The notes under the pieces were generated by a model that did no database searches, was not told where the DNA came from, and saw only the letters and a program-made list of their open reading frames with translations. The position numbers and the translations under genes were made by a program. DNA of 64,000 nt from Alphaproteobacteria bacterium (GTDB taxonomy: Bacteria > Pseudomonadota > Alphaproteobacteria > Bin95): the NCBI GenBank assembly GCA_965205265.1, contig CBDBGH010000003.1:1984001-2048000 (forward strand). The letters run 5' to 3'. Positions 19,296 through 47,404 of this stretch are shown here, piece after piece (the stretch's first letter is position 1; every line of letters starts with the position of its first letter).

Positions 19296-20456
19296 ATGAC
19301 GGGGGAACGGTTCCGCTTCCCGAGGGTCGAGTTCGGCCCGGAGGAACGGGCGCTCAGGGAGGAAGTCCGCGACTTCATCCGTTCCGAGCGGGAGTCGGGC
19401 GGCTTCACGCCCATGGCGGACAGCTGGGGCTCCGGCTGGTCGCCCGAATGGTCGCGCAAGATGGGCGAACGCGGCTGGCTCGGCATGATGTGGCCGAAGC
19501 AATATGGCGGCGGCGAGCGCCCGGCGCTGCACCGCTATATCGTGACCGAGGAGATGGTGTCCGCCGGCGCGCCCTGCGCCGCGCACTGGGTCGCCGACCG
19601 CCAGTCCGGGCCGCTGCTGCTGCGCTACGGCACGGAGGAGCAGCGGCGCTCGATCCTGCCGCGCATCGCCGCCGGGGAATGCTATTTCGCCATCGGCATG
19701 AGCGAGCCGGACTCCGGCTCCGACCTCGCTTCGGTCCGCACCGCGGCCACAAAGGTCGATGGCGGTTGGACGATAAACGGGCGCAAGATCTGGTCTTCCG
19801 GCGCGCACCGCTCGCATTACATGATCGCACTGGTCCGCACCCGGCCCCGCGACATGAAGGCCCGCCATGCCGGCCTGACACAGTTCCTGATCGACCTCAA
19901 GTCGCCCGGCATCGAGATACGCGGCATCCGCAATATCGCCGGCGAGCGCCATTTCAACGAGACCGTGTTCGACGATGCGTTCGTGCCGGACGACATGGCG
20001 ATCGGCGAGGTGGGCGACGGCTGGCGGCAGGTCACAAGCGAGCTCGCCATCGAACGCTCCGGGCCGGAACGGTTCCTCTCCACCTTCCCGGTGCTGACCG
20101 AGCTGGTGCGGGAACTCGGTCCCGAGCCCGGCGAGAGGGACGCGGAAACGGTCGGCGCGCTGGCGGCACGGACCATGGCGCTCCGGCGCATGTCGCTCGG
20201 CGTCTCGAAGCTGCTGGACGAAGGCGAGGCGCCGGAAGTCGCCGCCGCGCTCGTCAAGGACATGGGCACGCGCTTCGAGGGCGAACTGGTGCGCGAGGCC
20301 CGGAACCTCCTGCCGGCGCAGGCCGCGAGCCAGTCCCCGGACCTCTACGGCAAGGTGCTGGCGGACGGCGTGCTGCATGTGCCCTCCTCCACCATTCGCG
20401 GCGGCACCAACGAGGTGCTGAAGGGCATCGTCGCGCGGGAGCTGGGCCTTCGATGA
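19296..20456 (+). CDS. Acyl-CoA dehydrogenase (probable catalytic subunit)
   Basis: GMSEPDSGSDLAS, NGRKIWSS, FNETVFDD, ELAIERSG, IRGGTNEV. Confidence 0.93.
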   Translation: MTGERFRFPRVEFGPEERALREEVRDFIRSERESGGFTPMADSWGSGWSPEWSRKMGERGWLGMMWPKQYGGGERPALHRYIVTEEMVSAGAPCAAHWVADRQSGPLLLRYGTEEQRRSILPRIAAGECYFAIGMSEPDSGSDLASVRTAATKVDGGWTINGRKIWSSGAHRSHYMIALVRTRPRDMKARHAGLTQFLIDLKSPGIEIRGIRNIAGERHFNETVFDDAFVPDDMAIGEVGDGWRQVTSELAIERSGPERFLSTFPVLTELVRELGPEPGERDAETVGALAARTMALRRMSLGVSKLLDEGEAPEVAAALVKDMGTRFEGELVREARNLLPAQAASQSPDLYGKVLADGVLHVPSSTIRGGTNEVLKGIVARELGLR

Positions 20457-21502
20457 GCGACCGTATCGTCCTCGACACGGCGGAGCGCATCCTCGCCGAC
20501 CTCTGCCCGCCTGAGGTCGTCAACGACGCGGAGAACGGCGTCTGGCCGGCAGCGCTTTGGGAGGCGCTGGAGGAAAGCGGCCTCACCCTCGCCTGGGTTT
20601 GCGAAGAGCTCGGCGGCGGGGGAGCGGATGTCGGAGACGGCTTCGATATCCTGAAGGCAGCCGGCGCCTGGGCGGCTCCCGTTCCGTTGGCCGAAACGCT
20701 GCTGGCGGGCTGGCTTCTCGAACGGGTGGGCCTTGCCCCGGCGGTCGGCCCCATGACGGTGGCCCCGGTCGGCCCGGCCGACACCGTCGAGCTCTCAGGC
20801 GGCGTGCTCTCCGGCACGGCGCGGCAAGTGCCCTTCGCGCGCCAGGCCGGGCATGTCGCGCTGCTGGCGGCGGGCCGCATCCTTCTCGTCGAGCGGGAGG
20901 CCTGCGCGCTGGTGCCGGGAACGAGCCTTGCCGGCGAGGCGCGCGACGACATCGCGTTCGACGGCGTGCACCCGCTGCGCTCGGCCCCGGCGCCCGAGGG
21001 ACTCGACCGGGACCGCCCGATGCTTGTCGGTGCGGCGATCCGCGCGGCGCAGATGGCAGGCGCGCTTTCCCGGCTGCTCGACCAGTCGGTGCAATACGCG
21101 CAGGAGCGCGAGCAGTTCGGCCGGCCCATCGGTCGCTTCCAGGCGGTGCAACATGCGCTGGCGGAGCTCGCCGGCGAGGCAGCCGCGGCCGAAGCGGCGG
21201 CGGACGCCGCGGGCGAGGCCGTCGCGGCCGGGGATTTCGGCCCTGCCGGCGTCGCGGCGATTGCGGCGGCCAAGGCGCGCGTCGGCGAGGCGGCGTCGAA
21301 GGGCGCCGCCATCGCGCACCAGGTCCACGGCGCGATGGGCTTCACTTACGAACATTCCCTGCACCACCGCACGAGGCGGCTCTGGTGCTGGCGGGACGAG
21401 TTCGGCAATGAGCGCTTTTGGTCGGTCCGGCTCGGCCGCCTGATTGCCGAGAAGGGAGCCGACGCGCTCTGGCCCTTCGTGACCGGGAGCCATGCGGCGT
21501 GA
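20453..21502 (+). CDS. Acyl-CoA dehydrogenase-family protein (short, probable partner subunit)
   Basis: REQFGRPIGRFQAVQH, HQVHGAMGFTYEH; lacks EPxxGSD; ATGA coupling. Confidence 0.88.
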   Translation: MSDRIVLDTAERILADLCPPEVVNDAENGVWPAALWEALEESGLTLAWVCEELGGGGADVGDGFDILKAAGAWAAPVPLAETLLAGWLLERVGLAPAVGPMTVAPVGPADTVELSGGVLSGTARQVPFARQAGHVALLAAGRILLVEREACALVPGTSLAGEARDDIAFDGVHPLRSAPAPEGLDRDRPMLVGAAIRAAQMAGALSRLLDQSVQYAQEREQFGRPIGRFQAVQHALAELAGEAAAAEAAADAAGEAVAAGDFGPAGVAAIAAAKARVGEAASKGAAIAHQVHGAMGFTYEHSLHHRTRRLWCWRDEFGNERFWSVRLGRLIAEKGADALWPFVTGSHAA

Positions 21503-23294: not shown

Positions 23295-23345
23295 CCGTTC
23301 CGATAGAACCGCGTTTCGGTCCGAACCCGAACGGAACGTGCTCTA
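23295..23345. repeat. Imperfect hairpin repeat, copy 1 (possible bidirectional terminator)
   Basis: ccgttccgatagaac...cggaacgtg; related to 24642-24690; between convergent genes. Confidence 0.4.
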
Positions 23346-24530
23346 CCGCAGCGCTCGCCGCACGCGGTATGCGGTGCGGAAAAGGGCGGACATGCCGTTT
23401 GCCAGGCTGAAGAACGGCCGGCGCGCCGGCAGGAATTCGGCGGCGGCGAGGTCCTCAATGGCGTTGAGGGTCCGCCGCACGCCCGTTTCCACCAGCCGGC
23501 GCTTGCGGTCATCGCCGAGGTCCAGCCCGCCGCATACCAGAACCGCGACCGTCAGGAGCGACAGCATGTTCCGCCGGTAAAGCTGCCAGCAGTCCTCGAA
23601 GGTGAAGTCTTCCGCGCCCATGCCGCAGACAATGTCCCGATACTCGCTCAGGGCGTCGCGCTCGATTTCGCGGCGCAGTTCGGTCGGGATGTTGCCGCCG
23701 AGGAAATAGGCGACATCGTAGAGGCCGCTGCCGACAGCGCTGACCTGCCAGTCGATCATGGCGACCTTGTCCCCGCCGCCTGCGTCGAAGAACAGGTTGT
23801 CGAGCCGGACATCGCCGTGTGTGAAGGTGAGCGGCGCTGCGGCGACCTCGCCCAGATAGTCGATCAAGCACAGGCCGTAGGCTTCGACAATCCGGCGCAT
23901 TTCGCCCGTAAAGAGACCGTCGATGCGGTCGAGAGCCGGTGCGAGACTCGCCAGATAGACCAATTGCAGCACCCTGAGGCGTTTCGGGCTGAAGGCGTCG
24001 TGCAGCCCGGCCAGCGGCGGCCGGTCGGTCCTGTTCCAGTAGAAGCCGTGCATCCGCGCGAGCGCACGCACGACTGCCCTCGCCTGTTCGGCGGTCGCGC
24101 CGGCGATCTGGTCCCCTAGCGTCATTCCGCCCCCGCCCAGATCTTCGAGCACCAGGACGAAATCATGGCTCCGCGGCTCGAAGTCGCCGTACAGCAGGGC
24201 CGGCGAGCGGACCGGCGCCTGTGCGCCTATATGCCGGTAGAACTCGTATTCCCGCTTGTAGAGCGACAGGCGCCGGCACAGGCGCAGGCTTTTCGGGTCC
24301 GGGGAGGGCAGTTTGACGACGACGCTTCCGGGCGCCGCATCCGCCTCCCCTTCCCAGGCTATGCGGCAGCGCAGGATTTCCCCCAACAGGCCGAACCCGC
24401 CGCCGATCTCCTCGACCGCGACATCGCGGATCGCCGGAAGGTCCGGTGCGCCGGCGGCAGCCAGCGCCTGCTGCAGCCAGCGGGCATCCACCGCCTTCCC
24501 GCCCGCCGGAATTCCCGGATTTGCCGCCAT
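23343..24530 (-). CDS. Phosphotransferase (ecdysteroid-kinase-like/APH superfamily)
   Basis: SVVVKLP, YKREYEFY, LVLEDL, THGDVRLDNLFF, IDWQ, DVAYFL. Confidence 0.85.
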   Translation of the reverse strand: MAANPGIPAGGKAVDARWLQQALAAAGAPDLPAIRDVAVEEIGGGFGLLGEILRCRIAWEGEADAAPGSVVVKLPSPDPKSLRLCRRLSLYKREYEFYRHIGAQAPVRSPALLYGDFEPRSHDFVLVLEDLGGGGMTLGDQIAGATAEQARAVVRALARMHGFYWNRTDRPPLAGLHDAFSPKRLRVLQLVYLASLAPALDRIDGLFTGEMRRIVEAYGLCLIDYLGEVAAAPLTFTHGDVRLDNLFFDAGGGDKVAMIDWQVSAVGSGLYDVAYFLGGNIPTELRREIERDALSEYRDIVCGMGAEDFTFEDCWQLYRRNMLSLLTVAVLVCGGLDLGDDRKRRLVETGVRRTLNAIEDLAAAEFLPARRPFFSLANGMSALFRTAYRVRRALR

Positions 24531-24641
24531 GCCAACTCTTTCCCGCGGGCCGCTCCTTCTGGCGGCAGGACGCAGCCCTGCACGTCCGCCAGCCATCCGC
24601 CAGGCGCAGGAAACGCGCCGGCCGCGAGCCTAATGCAGAAC

Positions 24642-25818: not shown

Positions 25819-25863
25819 GGGACAGCGCCGCGCTCTTCCCGTCATGTCTGCGCGCTGTCCCTC

Positions 25864-25949
25864 CGTCATGCCCGGACTTGTTCCGGGCATCCACTTCCAC
25901 CGCCGTAACGACCCCGACGGAGATGCCCGGAACAAGTCCGGGCATGACG
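25864..25949. repeat. CGTC-tagged REP doublet (inverted pair, 30-nt spacer)
   Basis: cgtcatgcccggacttgttccgggcatc (25864-25891) and its exact reverse complement (25922-25949). Confidence 0.92.
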
Positions 25950-25980
25950 GGAAGAGGGTCGGGACACCGGGCCCGCGCCT

Positions 25981-26973
25981 GTGAACGAGGCCGGAAATAC
26001 GGACGCGCTCGCCGCTGCGCTTAGGCGCATGGGGTTGGTCGGGGCGGAGGAGCGGCCCCGCTTCGAGCCGCTGGAGGGCGGTGTCTCCTCGGACATCTAC
26101 CGGGTGGAAACGGCGGCGGGGCCCGTCTGCGTCAAGCGTGCGCTGCCTCGCCTCAAGGTCGCGGCCGACTGGCGCGCCCCGGTGGAGCGCAATGGCTCGG
26201 AAGCAGGCTGGTTCGCGGCCGTGAACGCGCTCCTGCCGGACGCCGCGCCGCGCCTGCTGGGGCAGGACGAAGAGGCGGGCGCACTCGCCATGACATGGCT
26301 TGAGCCGGAGACGCATCCGGTCTGGAAGGCGGAGCTTGCCGCCGGACGGGCCGACGCCGCCTTCGCGCGCGAGGTCGGACGCCGGCTCGCCCTCATCCAC
26401 CGGGCACATGCAGGCGACGGGGCGACCGCCGCCGCCTTCGCGACAGACCCGATCTTCCACGCGATCCGGCTGGAGCCCTACCTGCTGGCGACGGCGGAGC
26501 GGCACCCGGACCTCGCGCCCGCGCTCAACGACCTCGCCGAAGCGACGGCGGCAACGCGCGAAACGCTGGTCCACGGCGATGTCAGCCCGAAGAACATCCT
26601 CGCCGGACCCCGGGGTCCCGTTTTCCTCGACGCCGAATGCGCCTGGTACGGGGACCCCGCCTTCGACATCGCCTTCTGCCTGAACCACATGCTGCTGAAG
26701 AGCGTCTGGAAACCACGGCACGAGGCGGCCTATCTCGCCTGCTTCCGCGCGCTGGTCGAGGGCTACGGGCCGGAGGCGGCGCTGGAGGGGCGCGCGGCGC
26801 GGCTGCTGCCGGGCCTGCTGCTCGCGCGGCTCGACGGCAAGTCGCCGGTGGAATACCTCACCCGCGAGGACGAGAAGGCCCGCCCCCGCGCCTTCGCCCG
26901 CCGCCTGCTGCAACGCCCGCCCGCAAGCCTCGGCGAGATTGCGGCGGCCTGGGAGGAGGGGGCGGCGACGTGA
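25981..26973 (+). CDS. APH-family small-molecule kinase (methylthioribose-kinase-like)
   Basis: LEGGVSSDI, VKRALPRLKV, HGDVSPKNIL, FLDAECAWYGDPAFD. Confidence 0.85.
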   Translation: MNEAGNTDALAAALRRMGLVGAEERPRFEPLEGGVSSDIYRVETAAGPVCVKRALPRLKVAADWRAPVERNGSEAGWFAAVNALLPDAAPRLLGQDEEAGALAMTWLEPETHPVWKAELAAGRADAAFAREVGRRLALIHRAHAGDGATAAAFATDPIFHAIRLEPYLLATAERHPDLAPALNDLAEATAATRETLVHGDVSPKNILAGPRGPVFLDAECAWYGDPAFDIAFCLNHMLLKSVWKPRHEAAYLACFRALVEGYGPEAALEGRAARLLPGLLLARLDGKSPVEYLTREDEKARPRAFARRLLQRPPASLGEIAAAWEEGAAT

Positions 26974-28217
26974 ACGCCTTCGAGATCGAGAGGGTGCGCG
27001 GAAGGCGGGTCTGGGACTCGCGCGGGCGGCCGACGGTGGAGGCCGAAGTGCATCTCGCGGGCGGCGCGGTCGGGCGGGCGATTGCGCCTGCCGGGGCCTC
27101 GACCGGCTCGGGCGAGGCGCTCGACCGGCGCGATGGCGGCGCGGCCTTCGGCGGGCTCGACGTGATGCAGGCGGTAGCCTCGGTCGAGGGCGAGATCGCG
27201 GCCGCGCTCCGGGGCGTCAGTGTCGAGGACCGGGAAGCGGCGGACCGGCGGCTGATCCGGCTGGACGGCACAGAAGACAAGAGACGCCTGGGCGCCAATG
27301 CCTGCGTCGCCGTGTCGATGGCGGCGGCCTGGGCGGGCGCGGCGGCGGCCGGCCTGCCGCTCTGGCGCTGGCTTGCGGGCGAGGGGGCCGTCTCGCTGCC
27401 GGCCCCGGAAATCCAGATCTTCGGCGGCGGCGCCCATGCGGGGCGGCGGGTCGATATCCAGGACTTCATGGTGACCGCGCCGGGCGCTGAGAGCTTCGCG
27501 CAAGCCTGCGCCTGGACCGCCGAGGTCTATCGCGCGGCCGGCCTCCTTATGGCGGAGGCCGGGCGGCTGCGGGGCGTGGCGGACGAGGGCGGCTTCTGGC
27601 CGGATTTCGACACCAATGAGGCCGCGCTCGACATGCTGGCCCGCGCCATCGAGCGCGCCGGCTTCCGGCCGGGCGAGCAGGTCGCCATCGCGCTGGATGT
27701 GGCGGCAAGCGAGTTCGGGCAGGGCGGGCGCTACCGGCTCGCGCTGGAGGACCGGGAACTCGACAGCGAGGGCATGGGCCGCCTCGTCGGCGGCTGGCTC
27801 GCGCGCTACCCGATCGTCTCGGTGGAGGACCCGCTCGGCGAGGACGACTGGGAGGGCTTCGCCGCCTTTACCTCCGCCCATGGCGAGCGCGTGCAGGTGG
27901 TCGGCGACGACCTGCTCGTGACCTCCGCCCGGCGGGTCGGGGAAGCGGCGCGGCGGGGTGCGGCCAACACGCTGCTCATCAAGCCCAACCAGCGCGGCAC
28001 GCTCGCCGAGGCGAAGGCCGCCTGGGACGCCGCGCGCGAGGCGGGTTTCGGCGGCATCGTCTCGGCGCGCTCCGGCGAGACGGAGGATGTGACCATCGTC
28101 CATCTCGCCGTCGGCTGGGGCGCGCCCGGCCTCAAGGTCGGCTCCTTCGCGCGCTCCGAGCGCATGGCCAAGTGGAACGAGGCAATCCGCATAGAGGAAA
28201 GCCTCGCCCGTGCCTGA
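26970..28217 (+). CDS. Divergent enolase (phosphopyruvate hydratase) paralog
   Basis: DSRGRPTVE, GASTG, DEGG, DVAASEF, SVEDP, VGDDL, IKPNQ, RSGETED; non-canonical DIQDF and VSARSG. Confidence 0.88.
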   Translation: MNAFEIERVRGRRVWDSRGRPTVEAEVHLAGGAVGRAIAPAGASTGSGEALDRRDGGAAFGGLDVMQAVASVEGEIAAALRGVSVEDREAADRRLIRLDGTEDKRRLGANACVAVSMAAAWAGAAAAGLPLWRWLAGEGAVSLPAPEIQIFGGGAHAGRRVDIQDFMVTAPGAESFAQACAWTAEVYRAAGLLMAEAGRLRGVADEGGFWPDFDTNEAALDMLARAIERAGFRPGEQVAIALDVAASEFGQGGRYRLALEDRELDSEGMGRLVGGWLARYPIVSVEDPLGEDDWEGFAAFTSAHGERVQVVGDDLLVTSARRVGEAARRGAANTLLIKPNQRGTLAEAKAAWDAAREAGFGGIVSARSGETEDVTIVHLAVGWGAPGLKVGSFARSERMAKWNEAIRIEESLARA

Positions 28218-28275
28218 TACCGCCCCGATTGCTGCCCGGACGCCGGTCCAAAGACCGTCTCCCGGACACTCCCTC

Positions 28276-28362
28276 CGTCATGGCCGGACTTGTTCCGGCC
28301 ATCCATTTCCGCCGCCGTAATGGCCCCCAAGGGAGATGCCCGGAAAAAGTCCGGGCATGACG
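28276..28362. repeat. CGTC-tagged REP doublet (31-nt spacer) between convergent genes
   Basis: cgtcatggccggacttgttccggccatc (compensatory stem change) and gatgcccggaaaaagtccgggcatgacg. Confidence 0.9.
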
Positions 28363-28421: not shown

Positions 28422-28985
28422 TCAGCCCTGTTCGAGCTCGCTGTCCCAGTAGAGGAAGTCGGACCAGCTCTCATGCAGGAAATTGGGCGGGAAGCTGCGC
28501 CCGTTCTCCTGGAGGCGCCAGACGCTCGGCCGGACGGGGAGCTTCTGGAGCCGCATGCCGGAATCGCGCAGCAGCCGGTCGCCCTTGGCGCGGTTGCAGC
28601 GCCCGCAGGCGGCGACGACATTGGTCCATGCCGTGCGCCCGCCGCGCGAGCGCGGCACCACATGGTCAAAGGTCAGCTCTTCCGGCGGCAGGCGCGCGCC
28701 GCAATACTGGCAGCCGAAGCGGTCGCGCAGGAAGACGTTGAAGCGCGTGAAGGCCGGGTGGCGCGCCGGCGCCACATAGTCCCGCAGCGCGATGACGGAG
28801 GGCAGCCGCATGGCCCAGGTCGGCGAGCGCACCTCACGGTCGTATTCGGCCAGCACCTGCACGCGGTTGAGGAACACGGCCTTGACGCTTTCCTGCCACG
28901 ACCAGAGCGACAGCGGGAAATAGCTGAGCGGGCGGAAATCCGCATTCAGCACCAGCGTCGGCACGCTCTCCACAGGCGGCGTCAC
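28422..28985 (-). CDS. HNH endonuclease (McrA-like family common in alphaproteobacteria)
   Basis: LVLNADFRPLSY.PLS, FLRDRF.CQYCG, TFDHVVPRSRGG...W.NVVAAC..CN..K; GGAGG RBS. Confidence 0.93.
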   Translation of the reverse strand: MTPPVESVPTLVLNADFRPLSYFPLSLWSWQESVKAVFLNRVQVLAEYDREVRSPTWAMRLPSVIALRDYVAPARHPAFTRFNVFLRDRFGCQYCGARLPPEELTFDHVVPRSRGGRTAWTNVVAACGRCNRAKGDRLLRDSGMRLQKLPVRPSVWRLQENGRSFPPNFLHESWSDFLYWDSELEQG

Positions 28986-29123
28986 AGCACCCTCCAAACC
29001 CGGACCGCGAATCGGCCCGGCTCCCACCATAGGTGCGTCCAGCGCCGGCGCGCAAGGCTGGGGCGGCGCGAAAGCCGCGTCAGGCGGACGAAATTGCTGC
29101 GGCGGAAGGATGACGGGCGCGGC

Positions 29124-29529: not shown

Positions 29530-29851
29530 AGAGCACCCTGCCTTCCCGGAGCGCGCGGGCGAGGACGTGGTTCAGGGAATCGCGCTAGTATTCCCGTTCG
29601 GCGACCGTGAAGACGAGGATGTCTTTGTCCACGCCGAAGCCGGAGGCCGCCCTGTAGAGCCGCACCGACTCGTCCACGCGGCTCCGGCCCGCCCCGAAGG
29701 GCTCGGCCTCGATGACGATCAGGTCCACGTCGGAATGCTCATGCGCATCGCCGCGGGCGCGCGAGCCGAACAGGATCACCTGCTCGGGATCGACCTCCGC
29801 CACGATCGCGCGGACCATCCCGTCCAGCAACTCATCCGTAACCGGGACCAT
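29516..29851 (-). pseudogene. Minimal nucleotidyltransferase (MNT) antitoxin with premature TAG at 29585-29587
   Basis: VILFGSRARG...SDVDL; frame continues past TAG as RDSLNHVLARALREGRVLYE, the typical MNT C-terminus, overlapping the HEPN start. Confidence 0.82.
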
Positions 29852-29861
29852 CGCCCCTCCC
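29811..29861. repeat. 51-bp direct repeat A (RBS plus first 13 codons of MNT gene)
   Basis: Matches 30442-30492 with 3 mismatches. Confidence 0.9.
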
Positions 29862-29897
29862 TGCCGGCGCGCGTTCCGGGCGGCGATGCCGATGGCG

Positions 29898-30158
29898 TCA
29901 GGCCGCCTGCGGCCTTGCGCGGGTTTCGTCACCCCGGCCCATCAGCAGGCCTTCGACAGAAATGTCCTCGTTGAGTTCGTCCCAATGAAGACCGTTCCCC
30001 GAATAGCCGATCCGGTAGTTTTCCCGCTGCGCCGCCGTTGCGCGTCTCAGCCGCGGAAACCAGACCAGGGGCACGCCGAGCGAGCGCCCGTCATCCAACT
30101 CGACCCACATGGTGTGCGGGTCGAAGGAGACCGCGCGGGCTCTAGTCGAAATGTTCAT
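29898..30158 (-). CDS. DUF2442-family protein (predicted TA component)
   Basis: WVELDDGRSLGVPLVWFPRL..AT...R...GLHWDELNEDISVEGLL. Confidence 0.88.
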   Translation of the reverse strand: MNISTRARAVSFDPHTMWVELDDGRSLGVPLVWFPRLRRATAAQRENYRIGYSGNGLHWDELNEDISVEGLLMGRGDETRARPQAA

Positions 30159-30385
30159 TCCAGGCTCTTTCGATTTCTTCCCGACGCCGCCGCACTATGT
30201 CGGCCAATTCCGAAAGCTGCTTGCGGCTGTAGCCGGCGCTCCTAGCAATTCCCACCTCCGGATACAACCAGAATTTCGCCTCGCCGTCACTGCTTTCCGC
30301 GTGGATATGCACCGGCTCCCGGGGGCGCGCCCTCATTCGAGAAGAAGTGGAAGCGAACATTCCGATGGCGAAAGACCACGGGCAC
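30142..30385 (-). pseudogene. DUF4160-family protein with a +1 frameshift in a G5 run (30321-30325)
   Basis: MPVVFRHRNVRFHFFSNEGAP in one frame continues as REPVHIHAE..GEAKFWL in another. Confidence 0.82.
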
Positions 30386-30441
30386 AGGATTAATCCGCGG
30401 CGTCTCGGCATGAACGACCGGGACAGGCCGGCAATATCGAT

Positions 30442-34482: not shown

Positions 34483-34878
34483 TCAGTCTGACGCTTCGGT
34501 TCGCAATCCCGCATGGCGCGCAAGCACATCGAAGTCGGAGTCGTTGTGCAGAACGGCTGCATCCGCGCGAATTGCGATAGCGCCGATGAAGCAGTCGAGC
34601 AGCTTGCGAACGGTTTCTCCTTCGCGGCGGCATCGCCGGTAGAGGACGGCTGCTTCGTCGAAGTCGCCCGGCACCGTCGGGAGGATGATCGCTCTCGCAA
34701 GCAGCCGGCGCAGGCTCGACAAGTGGCGTTCGTCCCGCGCTCCGGCAAGCACTTCCATGCGAACTGCGTCGCACACCGCAATTTCTTCTCTGTCCAGCAA
34801 GGCATCGACGCGCTCGCAGATCGGCGAGCGGGTATTGCGAAGGAACTCGACCCATGCCGAGGTGTCGATCAGGATCAC
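34483..34878 (-). CDS. vapC: VapC PIN-domain toxin
   Basis: MILIDTSAWVEF, MEVLAG, DCFI, HNDSDF. Confidence 0.93.
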   Translation of the reverse strand: MILIDTSAWVEFLRNTRSPICERVDALLDREEIAVCDAVRMEVLAGARDERHLSSLRRLLARAIILPTVPGDFDEAAVLYRRCRREGETVRKLLDCFIGAIAIRADAAVLHNDSDFDVLARHAGLRTEASD

Positions 34879-47237: not shown

Positions 47238-47404
47238 AGGGGCGTTATACCAACGGCCTCAATTCGGACTCATGGCGACGGTCATGGCTTTATTATCGTC
47301 GCCCCGGTTCTCGCAGCACCCCCCTTCGTCATACCCGGACTTGTTCCGGGCATCCATGCGGCCGTCCGACGGAAGCGGTGGCGGGAGATACCCGGAACAA
47401 GTCC

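Follow-up and report, generated by a model that had tools for sequence, protein, structure and literature searches.

A 64,000-nucleotide (nt) stretch of an Alphaproteobacteria bacterium (GenBank assembly GCA_965205265.1, contig CBDBGH010000003.1, positions 1,984,001 to 2,048,000; hereafter the window, numbered from its first letter) carries two overlapping genes on the positive strand that encode a small-molecule kinase and a second, variant enolase, which we call ENO2. The pair probably runs a "phosphorylate, then dehydrate" route for a glycerate-like acid. ENO2 differs from canonical enolases by two substitutions at positions that face the C3 hydroxyl of 2-phosphoglycerate in our reading, and these substitutions define a branch whose members are mostly found beside, or fused to, the same kinase. 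For the substrate, we give about even odds to an analogue of glycerate, for instance an acid sugar or a dicarboxylate, whose C3 substituent is larger or of another kind.

The window has a G+C content of about 70%, and the source genome measures 5.70 Mb in 3 contigs, with 99% completeness and 7.3% contamination. Open reading frames and their translations place the kinase, an APH-fold, MtnK-like protein of 330 amino acids (aa), at 25981..26973 and ENO2, the 415-aa Asp/Ala variant, at 26970..28217. Both genes begin with GTG; the kinase start codon is uncertain, since the alignments of its homologues begin at about residue 10. As originally predicted, the two are coupled by the sequence GTGA at 26970..26973 on the positive strand, where the stop of the kinase gene overlaps the start of ENO2. 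The purine-rich, Shine-Dalgarno-like stretch GGGAGGAGGGGG (26951..26962, positive strand), lying within the kinase gene 8 to 19 nt 5' of the ENO2 start, presumably serves ENO2 in ribosome binding. The kinase matched Pfam APH (PF01636) with 70.6 bits. ENO2 was covered over its full length by Enolase_N (PF03952; 147 bits) and Enolase_C (PF00113; 277 to 279 bits), and all the motifs that had been quoted for it were found in its translation: GASTG, LDVAASEF, SVED, GDD, IKPNQ, DEGG, SARSG, DIQDF and EIQIFGGG.

The presence of a separate canonical enolase gene in the genome had been set beforehand as a test. Such a gene was found at G000:C3:2915438-2916691, with a 426-aa product. A profile search of the genome gave two Enolase_C matches in total, scoring 406 bits for the canonical copy as opposed to 279 bits for ENO2. 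The two proteins are 52% identical, and the canonical one reads IQEF, SHRSG and MMNVLNGG where ENO2 reads IQDF, SARSG and EIQIFGGG. We take the canonical Glu and His (E168 and H373 in yeast), which correspond to Asp165 and Ala366 of ENO2, to contact the C3 hydroxyl of the substrate. Among 300 other genomes of the same class, ENO2-type matches (at least 427 bits) occurred in 19, each of which had at least two enolase matches; canonical matches scored at most 409 bits. ENO2 was thus never the sole enolase in these 19 genomes, and neither was it in five out of five further genomes or in the genome of the window. Two unpublished genomes, G240 and G040, are counted in these tallies and in those for MOFRL kinases below; no pair-specific statement depends on them. 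The glycolytic role does not belong to ENO2.

We next evaluated how constant the ENO2 features are. Residues were counted in 200 members, namely the best 120 database relatives and 80 genome loci, the latter being the best of at least 557 confirmed stretches (one genome per species, detected with two branch-specific peptides). The 120 relatives are 72 to 95% identical to ENO2 and are named enolase or phosphopyruvate hydratase wherever the source names them. The best 80 loci came from Alpha-, Beta- and Gammaproteobacteria, nine Streptomyces, Acidobacteriota, Methylomirabilales and one Bacteroidota metagenome-assembled genome. Asp165 and Ala366 were present in all 200 members, and all 24 canonical sequences had Glu and His at these positions. 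Since the two changes recur in every member, they are evidently not due to chance. Eleven residues (S44, H156, Q164, E206, D243, E286, D313, K338, R367, S368 and K389) were likewise kept in 200 of 200, covering the metal ligands, the catalytic Lys338 and Glu206, Lys389, the lid His156 and the Arg-Ser phosphate site. Judged by these residues, ENO2 is predicted to keep the full set of residues for binding a 2-phospho carboxylate with two Mg2+ and for taking its C2 proton.

Nine positions separated 36 ENO2 sequences from the 24 canonical ones: N to G152, N to R159, E to D165, L to A190, G to A204, A to W210, L to W276, H to A366 and T to V390. Trp210 was found in all 200 members, Arg160 in 198 and His378 in 197. 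Gly152 was also found in all 200, a count that for the 80 loci reflects its position inside one of the search peptides. A maximum-likelihood tree built from 60 sequences placed the variants, recognised by SARSG, and the canonical enzymes on opposite sides of a single branch (SH-aLRT 99). ENO2 proteins of Streptomyces, Acidobacteriota and Methylomirabilota were nested among those of proteobacteria, and those same Streptomyces and Burkholderiaceae genomes had their canonical enzymes in the canonical clade. This placement indicates that ENO2 is an old paralogue that has probably spread by horizontal transfer. The branch has no solved structure; the best matches of ENO2 in the PDB were canonical enolases (at most 387 bits, with IQEF and SHRSG in the alignment).

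Conservation of the kinase as a neighbour of ENO2 was the other test set beforehand, and the pairing held when approached from the enolase, from the kinase and through fusion proteins. On the enolase side, 64 of 80 ENO2 loci had a kinase homologue, which in 59 of them lay at most 260 nt upstream on the same strand. The 16 loci without it were nine from Streptomyces, four from Burkholderiales, and L003, L007 and L011, the last of which has no upstream DNA. Five genomes with kinase-less loci were searched, and each contained exactly one kinase orthologue (51 to 55% identity), located in four of the five 6.2 to 12.5 kb from ENO2 on the same contig. On the kinase side, 20 of the 300 same-class genomes carried the gene, in 21 loci with homologues 38 to 64% identical. 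All 21 adjoined an enolase gene, and SARSG was present in all 19 that reached the corresponding region. From this distribution the kinase is predicted to be an obligate partner of ENO2. Two local variants of the arrangement were seen: an NAD-dependent epimerase gene precedes ENO2 in L003, and in L004 (ENO2 88% identical) a choline-sulfatase-like gene lies between the kinase and ENO2 (L004:4434-5951).

Fusions were surveyed in 116 long relatives of 728 to 2075 aa. Kinase and enolase were joined in one polypeptide in 93 of them, with the kinase N-terminal in 92, which is the gene order of the window. The two diagnostic positions read Asp/Ala in 88 of these fusions, Pro/Ala in one and Asp/Val in one; the second position was unaligned in the remaining three. 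Four more long relatives were fusions of ENO2 with a D-2-hydroxyacid dehydrogenase (2-HADH). Among the long enolases, 14 had the canonical Glu, and not one of these was fused to a kinase. Because ENO2 is fused in some relatives to the kinase and in others to the dehydrogenase, the fusions directly place all three in one pathway.

The AlphaFold model of the kinase, built on 35 kinase orthologues, had a pLDDT of 95.5. Its nearest solved folds were methylthioribose kinases (TM 0.74 to 0.81, 13 to 18% identity), followed by the hydroxytryptamine kinase PsiK and the lanthipeptide kinase LxmK. Residues H198, G199, D200, N205 and D217, which we read as the HGD..N catalytic loop and the D-x-E/D metal motif, were invariant or nearly so in the 35 orthologues. 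The label "MtnK-like" of the original prediction stands as a description of resemblance, 5-methylthioribose kinase MtnK (TIGR01767) being both the best NCBIfam model and the nearest fold, but not as an assignment: the kinase scored 56.3 bits against a cut-off of 275 and has 330 aa as opposed to about 400. Methionine-salvage genes were absent from the recurrent neighbour families of the 80 ENO2 loci. The model thus describes a small-molecule kinase of the MtnK type that is apparently not MtnK itself. With its APH fold, it also falls outside the known glycerate kinase families (GlxK/GarK, PF02595; MOFRL/GckA, PF05161), and functional hints from the ESM Atlas were limited to unnamed "phosphotransferase family" clusters. 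The genome of the window has a separate MOFRL glycerate 2-kinase and no PF02595 protein. MOFRL glycerate 2-kinases were found in 17 of the 20 kinase-bearing genomes, compared with 145 of 301 genomes overall. The kinase therefore does not replace a glycerate kinase.

The only recurrent neighbour family other than the kinase was the 2-HADH, present in 24 of 80 loci. The neighbouring dehydrogenases fall into lineages that are only 31 to 38% identical to each other, which suggests that the enzyme was recruited repeatedly and independently. A larger conserved cluster was found in Streptomyces, Burkholderiaceae and Rhizobium, with L111 (G301:C1:1343000-1362000) as one example and others among loci L038 to L079. 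It comprises an operon of 2-HADH, kinase and cupin genes, MFS or ABC transport, an FAH-family hydrolase, a LacI regulator and an FMN reductase. The cluster also includes ENO2, after which come genes for an HpaD-like VOC protein (287 bits, cut-off 321), a CMD-family protein and a Zn-ADH. This cluster may reveal the class of the substrate. Close orthologues of its accessory genes were absent from the genome of the window, where searches with the 2-HADH, FAH, Zn-ADH and CMD proteins retrieved paralogues at 27 to 38% identity; there, the module is the bare kinase-ENO2 pair.

Sporadic neighbours included a GarL equivalog in L069 (439 bits, cut-off 393), a pyruvate kinase in L016, a TRAP transporter in L026, galactarate-dehydratase-like genes in L022, L024 and L026, and SDRs, FGGY kinases, aldo-keto reductases and MFS transporters. 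We count the scattered acid-sugar context (GarL, the galactarate-dehydratase-like genes, TRAP/MFS, FAH and Zn-ADH) toward the proposed two-enzyme route. An EamA exporter was considered as a third conserved gene and rejected: the cluster of 54 loci that suggested it was a single-linkage artefact of overlapping high-GC open reading frames, and true EamA genes occurred in 3 to 4 of 80 loci, with one more in L051.

These results are consistent with a self-contained two-enzyme module. The partner of ENO2 is a kinase, and the enzyme that recurs beside them reduces 2-oxo acids to D-2-hydroxy acids, so the simplest scheme, by analogy with known routes, would most likely run from a 2-oxo acid through a D-2-hydroxy acid and a 2-phospho acid to an enol phosphate. 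The 2-HADH, where attached, would make the acid from the matching 2-oxo acid. With ATP, the kinase would phosphorylate the 2-hydroxyl of a D-2,3-dihydroxy carboxylic acid, a glycerate analogue. In ENO2, Lys338 would then abstract the C2 proton while two Mg2+ and the phosphate site hold the enolate, and Glu206, which we take to be the acid that aids hydroxide departure, would help the 3-hydroxyl to leave. The expected product is an enol phosphate, an analogue or a precursor of phosphoenolpyruvate (PEP), from which the phosphoryl group could be recovered. The gene pair with its conservation and fusions, the invariant substitutions and the presence of a canonical enolase alongside are observed, whereas the site of phosphorylation, the dehydration step and the nature of the substrate are what we infer. 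The C3 side of the ENO2 pocket would be rebuilt by changes of Glu to Asp, His to Ala, Asn to Gly, Leu to Ala, Ala to Trp and Leu to Trp. Given this rebuilding, the preferred substrate would most likely carry more, or a different group, at C3 than 2-phosphoglycerate does: a C4 to C6 acid sugar or a dicarboxylate. The phosphorylate-and-dehydrate logic of the original prediction is thus supported, with backing from the recruited and fused dehydrogenases; its enlarged pocket and its tetronate or pentonate substrate remain proposals.

The pair could instead serve plain glycerate. In that case the kinase would be a D-glycerate 2-kinase of non-homologous origin and ENO2 an ordinary enolase dedicated to 2-phosphoglycerate, together converting hydroxypyruvate or glycerate to PEP with the help of a hydroxypyruvate reductase. 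Such a bypass accounts well for several observations: 2-HADH, kinase and enolase map exactly onto the steps from hydroxypyruvate through D-glycerate and 2-phosphoglycerate to PEP; the GarL equivalog, the pyruvate kinase and the galactarate-dehydratase-like genes appear as neighbours; and ENO2 passes the enolase equivalog model. A canonical enolase would, however, suffice for 2-phosphoglycerate, yet in 20 of 20 genomes the kinase was found only with the Asp/Ala enolase, and it is fused only to that type. Because the kinase never accompanies or joins the canonical enolase that every genome has, because both residues at the C3 hydroxyl changed and then stayed invariant in 200 of 200 members, and because a MOFRL glycerate 2-kinase is already encoded in the genome of the window and in 17 of 20 kinase-bearing genomes, we judge that something other than plain glycerate is probably the substrate, and we regard this bypass as a serious but unlikely competitor. 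Distinctly less likely is a different chemistry at C3, in which ENO2 would still form the Mg-stabilised enolate of a 2-phospho acid and then release or add something other than water, for instance sulfite, phosphate or an amine, or would only epimerise or tautomerise the kinase product. Alteration is confined to the surroundings of the leaving group, the proton-abstracting and phosphate-binding parts being intact; most members have Arg159 and Arg160 instead of Asn-Pro in the active-site lid; and LxmK, a kinase of related structure, is one half of a phosphorylate-then-eliminate pair. Set against this are the retention of Glu206 in 200 of 200 members and the absence of recurrent genes for sulfite, phosphate or amine handling beside the pair in the 80 loci.

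Two further explanations were weighed. In a resistance cassette, ENO2 would be an inhibitor-insensitive spare enolase and the APH-type kinase would inactivate a natural enolase inhibitor. The APH family does include antibiotic kinases, the distribution is patchy with signs of horizontal transfer, and the changed residues lie where, we presume, substrate-analogue inhibitors bind. Fusion to and recruitment of 2-HADH do not fit this explanation, the exporter association was the artefact described above, PADLOC gave no match, and we found no link to a producer cluster in the literature, which makes it highly improbable. We give hardly any credence to the notion that ENO2 is a redundant or decaying duplicate of the glycolytic enolase. 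It is annotated as an enolase and is 52% identical to the housekeeping enzyme, but its best 120 relatives retain 72 to 95% identity, its catalytic residues and signature are invariant, and it forms one distinct branch across several phyla with fusions of its own; the conservation data already contradict such a duplicate.

Several points nevertheless weigh against a dedicated substrate or a strict pairing. ENO2 scored 451.6 bits against the NCBIfam enolase equivalog TIGR01060, passing its cut-off of 300; since it also keeps all catalytic residues of the first step, it may retain activity on 2-phosphoglycerate. The site of phosphorylation is assigned from the 2-phosphoglycerate analogy alone. 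The most informative neighbours (GarL, pyruvate kinase and dehydrogenases resembling hydroxypyruvate reductase) fit plain D-glycerate equally, and the other neighbours are highly variable, with none related in the window, so the context names no substrate. Arg342, considered as a new anion binder for the whole family, was abandoned, as only 141 of 200 members carry it. In the closest relative, L003, whose ENO2 is 91% identical, no kinase was found within 6 kb upstream. Finally, two genomes of one genus (G129 and G283) have ENO2 (67% identity) and gave no kinase match at an E value of 1e-20, and could represent either an exception to the pairing or a more divergent kinase.

The pair is flanked by copies of a repeat. 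A REP-like double hairpin lies upstream at 25858..25950, with perfect 29-nt inverted arms at 25863-25891 and 25922-25950, and a second copy in direct orientation, 87 to 92% identical, lies downstream at 28270..28362. We considered a mobile island bounded by these repeats and rejected it: about 176 sites were counted across the 5.7-Mb genome, including others in the window at 47322, 47537 and 60507, so the element is a generic REP that marks intergenic regions and has no part in the pathway. A riboswitch or known RNA upstream was also discarded, Rfam having returned only spurious mir-3116 and mir-4436 matches on the REP hairpin, below the gathering score. No sigma-70-like promoter was found for the pair, and terminator-like sites occurred at chance level. 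In the RNA-labelled metatranscriptome X20, contigs about 90 to 95% alike covered parts of both genes (26005-26822 and 27020-28182). None of them bridged the gene junction and DNA carry-over is possible, so we do not count them as evidence of expression. The dataset X24 contained no contigs matching the pair. Sponge metagenome is the label of several sequencing runs in which small parts of the stretch occur, too little to claim a habitat.

The neighbouring genes in the window show no functional link to the pair. Besides the kinase, endonuclease and toxin-antitoxin-like genes placed below, they encode a BNR-repeat protein, an MFS transporter, a GMC oxidoreductase and a luciferase-like monooxygenase. 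A second, unrelated kinase gene of the APH/EcKL family (417 aa) is located at 23343-24596 on the negative strand, 1.4 kb upstream of the pair. Two adjacent acyl-CoA-dehydrogenase-like genes occupy 19296-21502, the second of which matches the C-terminal domain only. An HNH endonuclease gene is found at 28422-29030, and small toxin-antitoxin-like genes at 29585-30411 and 34483-34878 encode a nucleotidyltransferase-domain protein, DUF2442 and DUF4160, with a PIN-domain gene further on. A defence system was considered and dropped in view of the PADLOC result.

To our knowledge, the enolase family is usually treated as isofunctional. We found no description of the kinase-ENO2 pair or of its branch in the full-text literature, a search whose coverage leaves out most subscription journals. 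A second Streptomyces enolase (SCO7638), a possible member of the ENO2 branch, is treated as glycolytic in one article (PMC7244524). ENO2 proteins are named enolase or phosphopyruvate hydratase and pass TIGR01060, so that genome annotations and metabolic models list them as surplus enzymes of glycolysis. If ENO2 has a substrate of its own, the enolase family would gain a new specificity, the kinase family a function, and common soil, water and symbiotic bacteria a new route from a hydroxy acid to a PEP-type product; the carriers include Streptomyces, Burkholderiaceae, Rhizobium and Methylobacterium. A bolder proposal, which we advance tentatively and consider somewhat unlikely, is that the pair represents a widespread, so far unrecognised catabolism of acid sugars or hydroxy acids in which 2-O-phosphorylation by ATP and enolase-type dehydration replace the usual acid-sugar dehydratases that depend on metal or Fe-S and yield phosphoenol 2-keto-3-deoxy acids. 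If true, these products would form a new class of high-energy metabolites, their phosphate being recovered as ATP, and ENO2 would be the first member of the enolase family proper with a substrate specificity outside glycolysis. Because the module has only two genes and natural fusions exist, the pathway can be tested directly.

Compared with canonical enolase (EC 4.2.1.11; TIGR01060), ENO2 shares both domains, the length, the metal ligands and the catalytic Lys and Glu, and it likewise retains the second Lys, the lid His and the Arg-Ser phosphate site. It differs in having Asp for Glu, Ala for His and seven further branch-specific positions. It accompanies the canonical enzyme and never replaces it, and, unlike that enzyme, appears to be obligately paired with or fused to the kinase. 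Hydroxypyruvate reductase, glycerate 2-kinase and enolase make up the lower serine cycle and the glucarate/galactarate and tartrate routes. The order of reactions in HprA-GckA-Eno and GarL-GarR-GarK is the one we propose for the pair, and GarL and pyruvate kinase are among its occasional neighbours; the kinase of the pair, however, has the APH/MtnK fold rather than that of MOFRL or GlxK, and its enolase is of the variant type. No phosphonate genes were found near the pair in the window or among the recurrent neighbours of ENO2 loci. PhpH, an enolase homologue that makes carboxyphosphonoenolpyruvate in phosphinothricin biosynthesis, dehydrates a modified 2-phosphoglycerate. It thus provides a precedent for a paralogue within the enolase family, with the difference that the substrate of PhpH is altered on the phosphate side, whereas ENO2 is changed on the C3 side.

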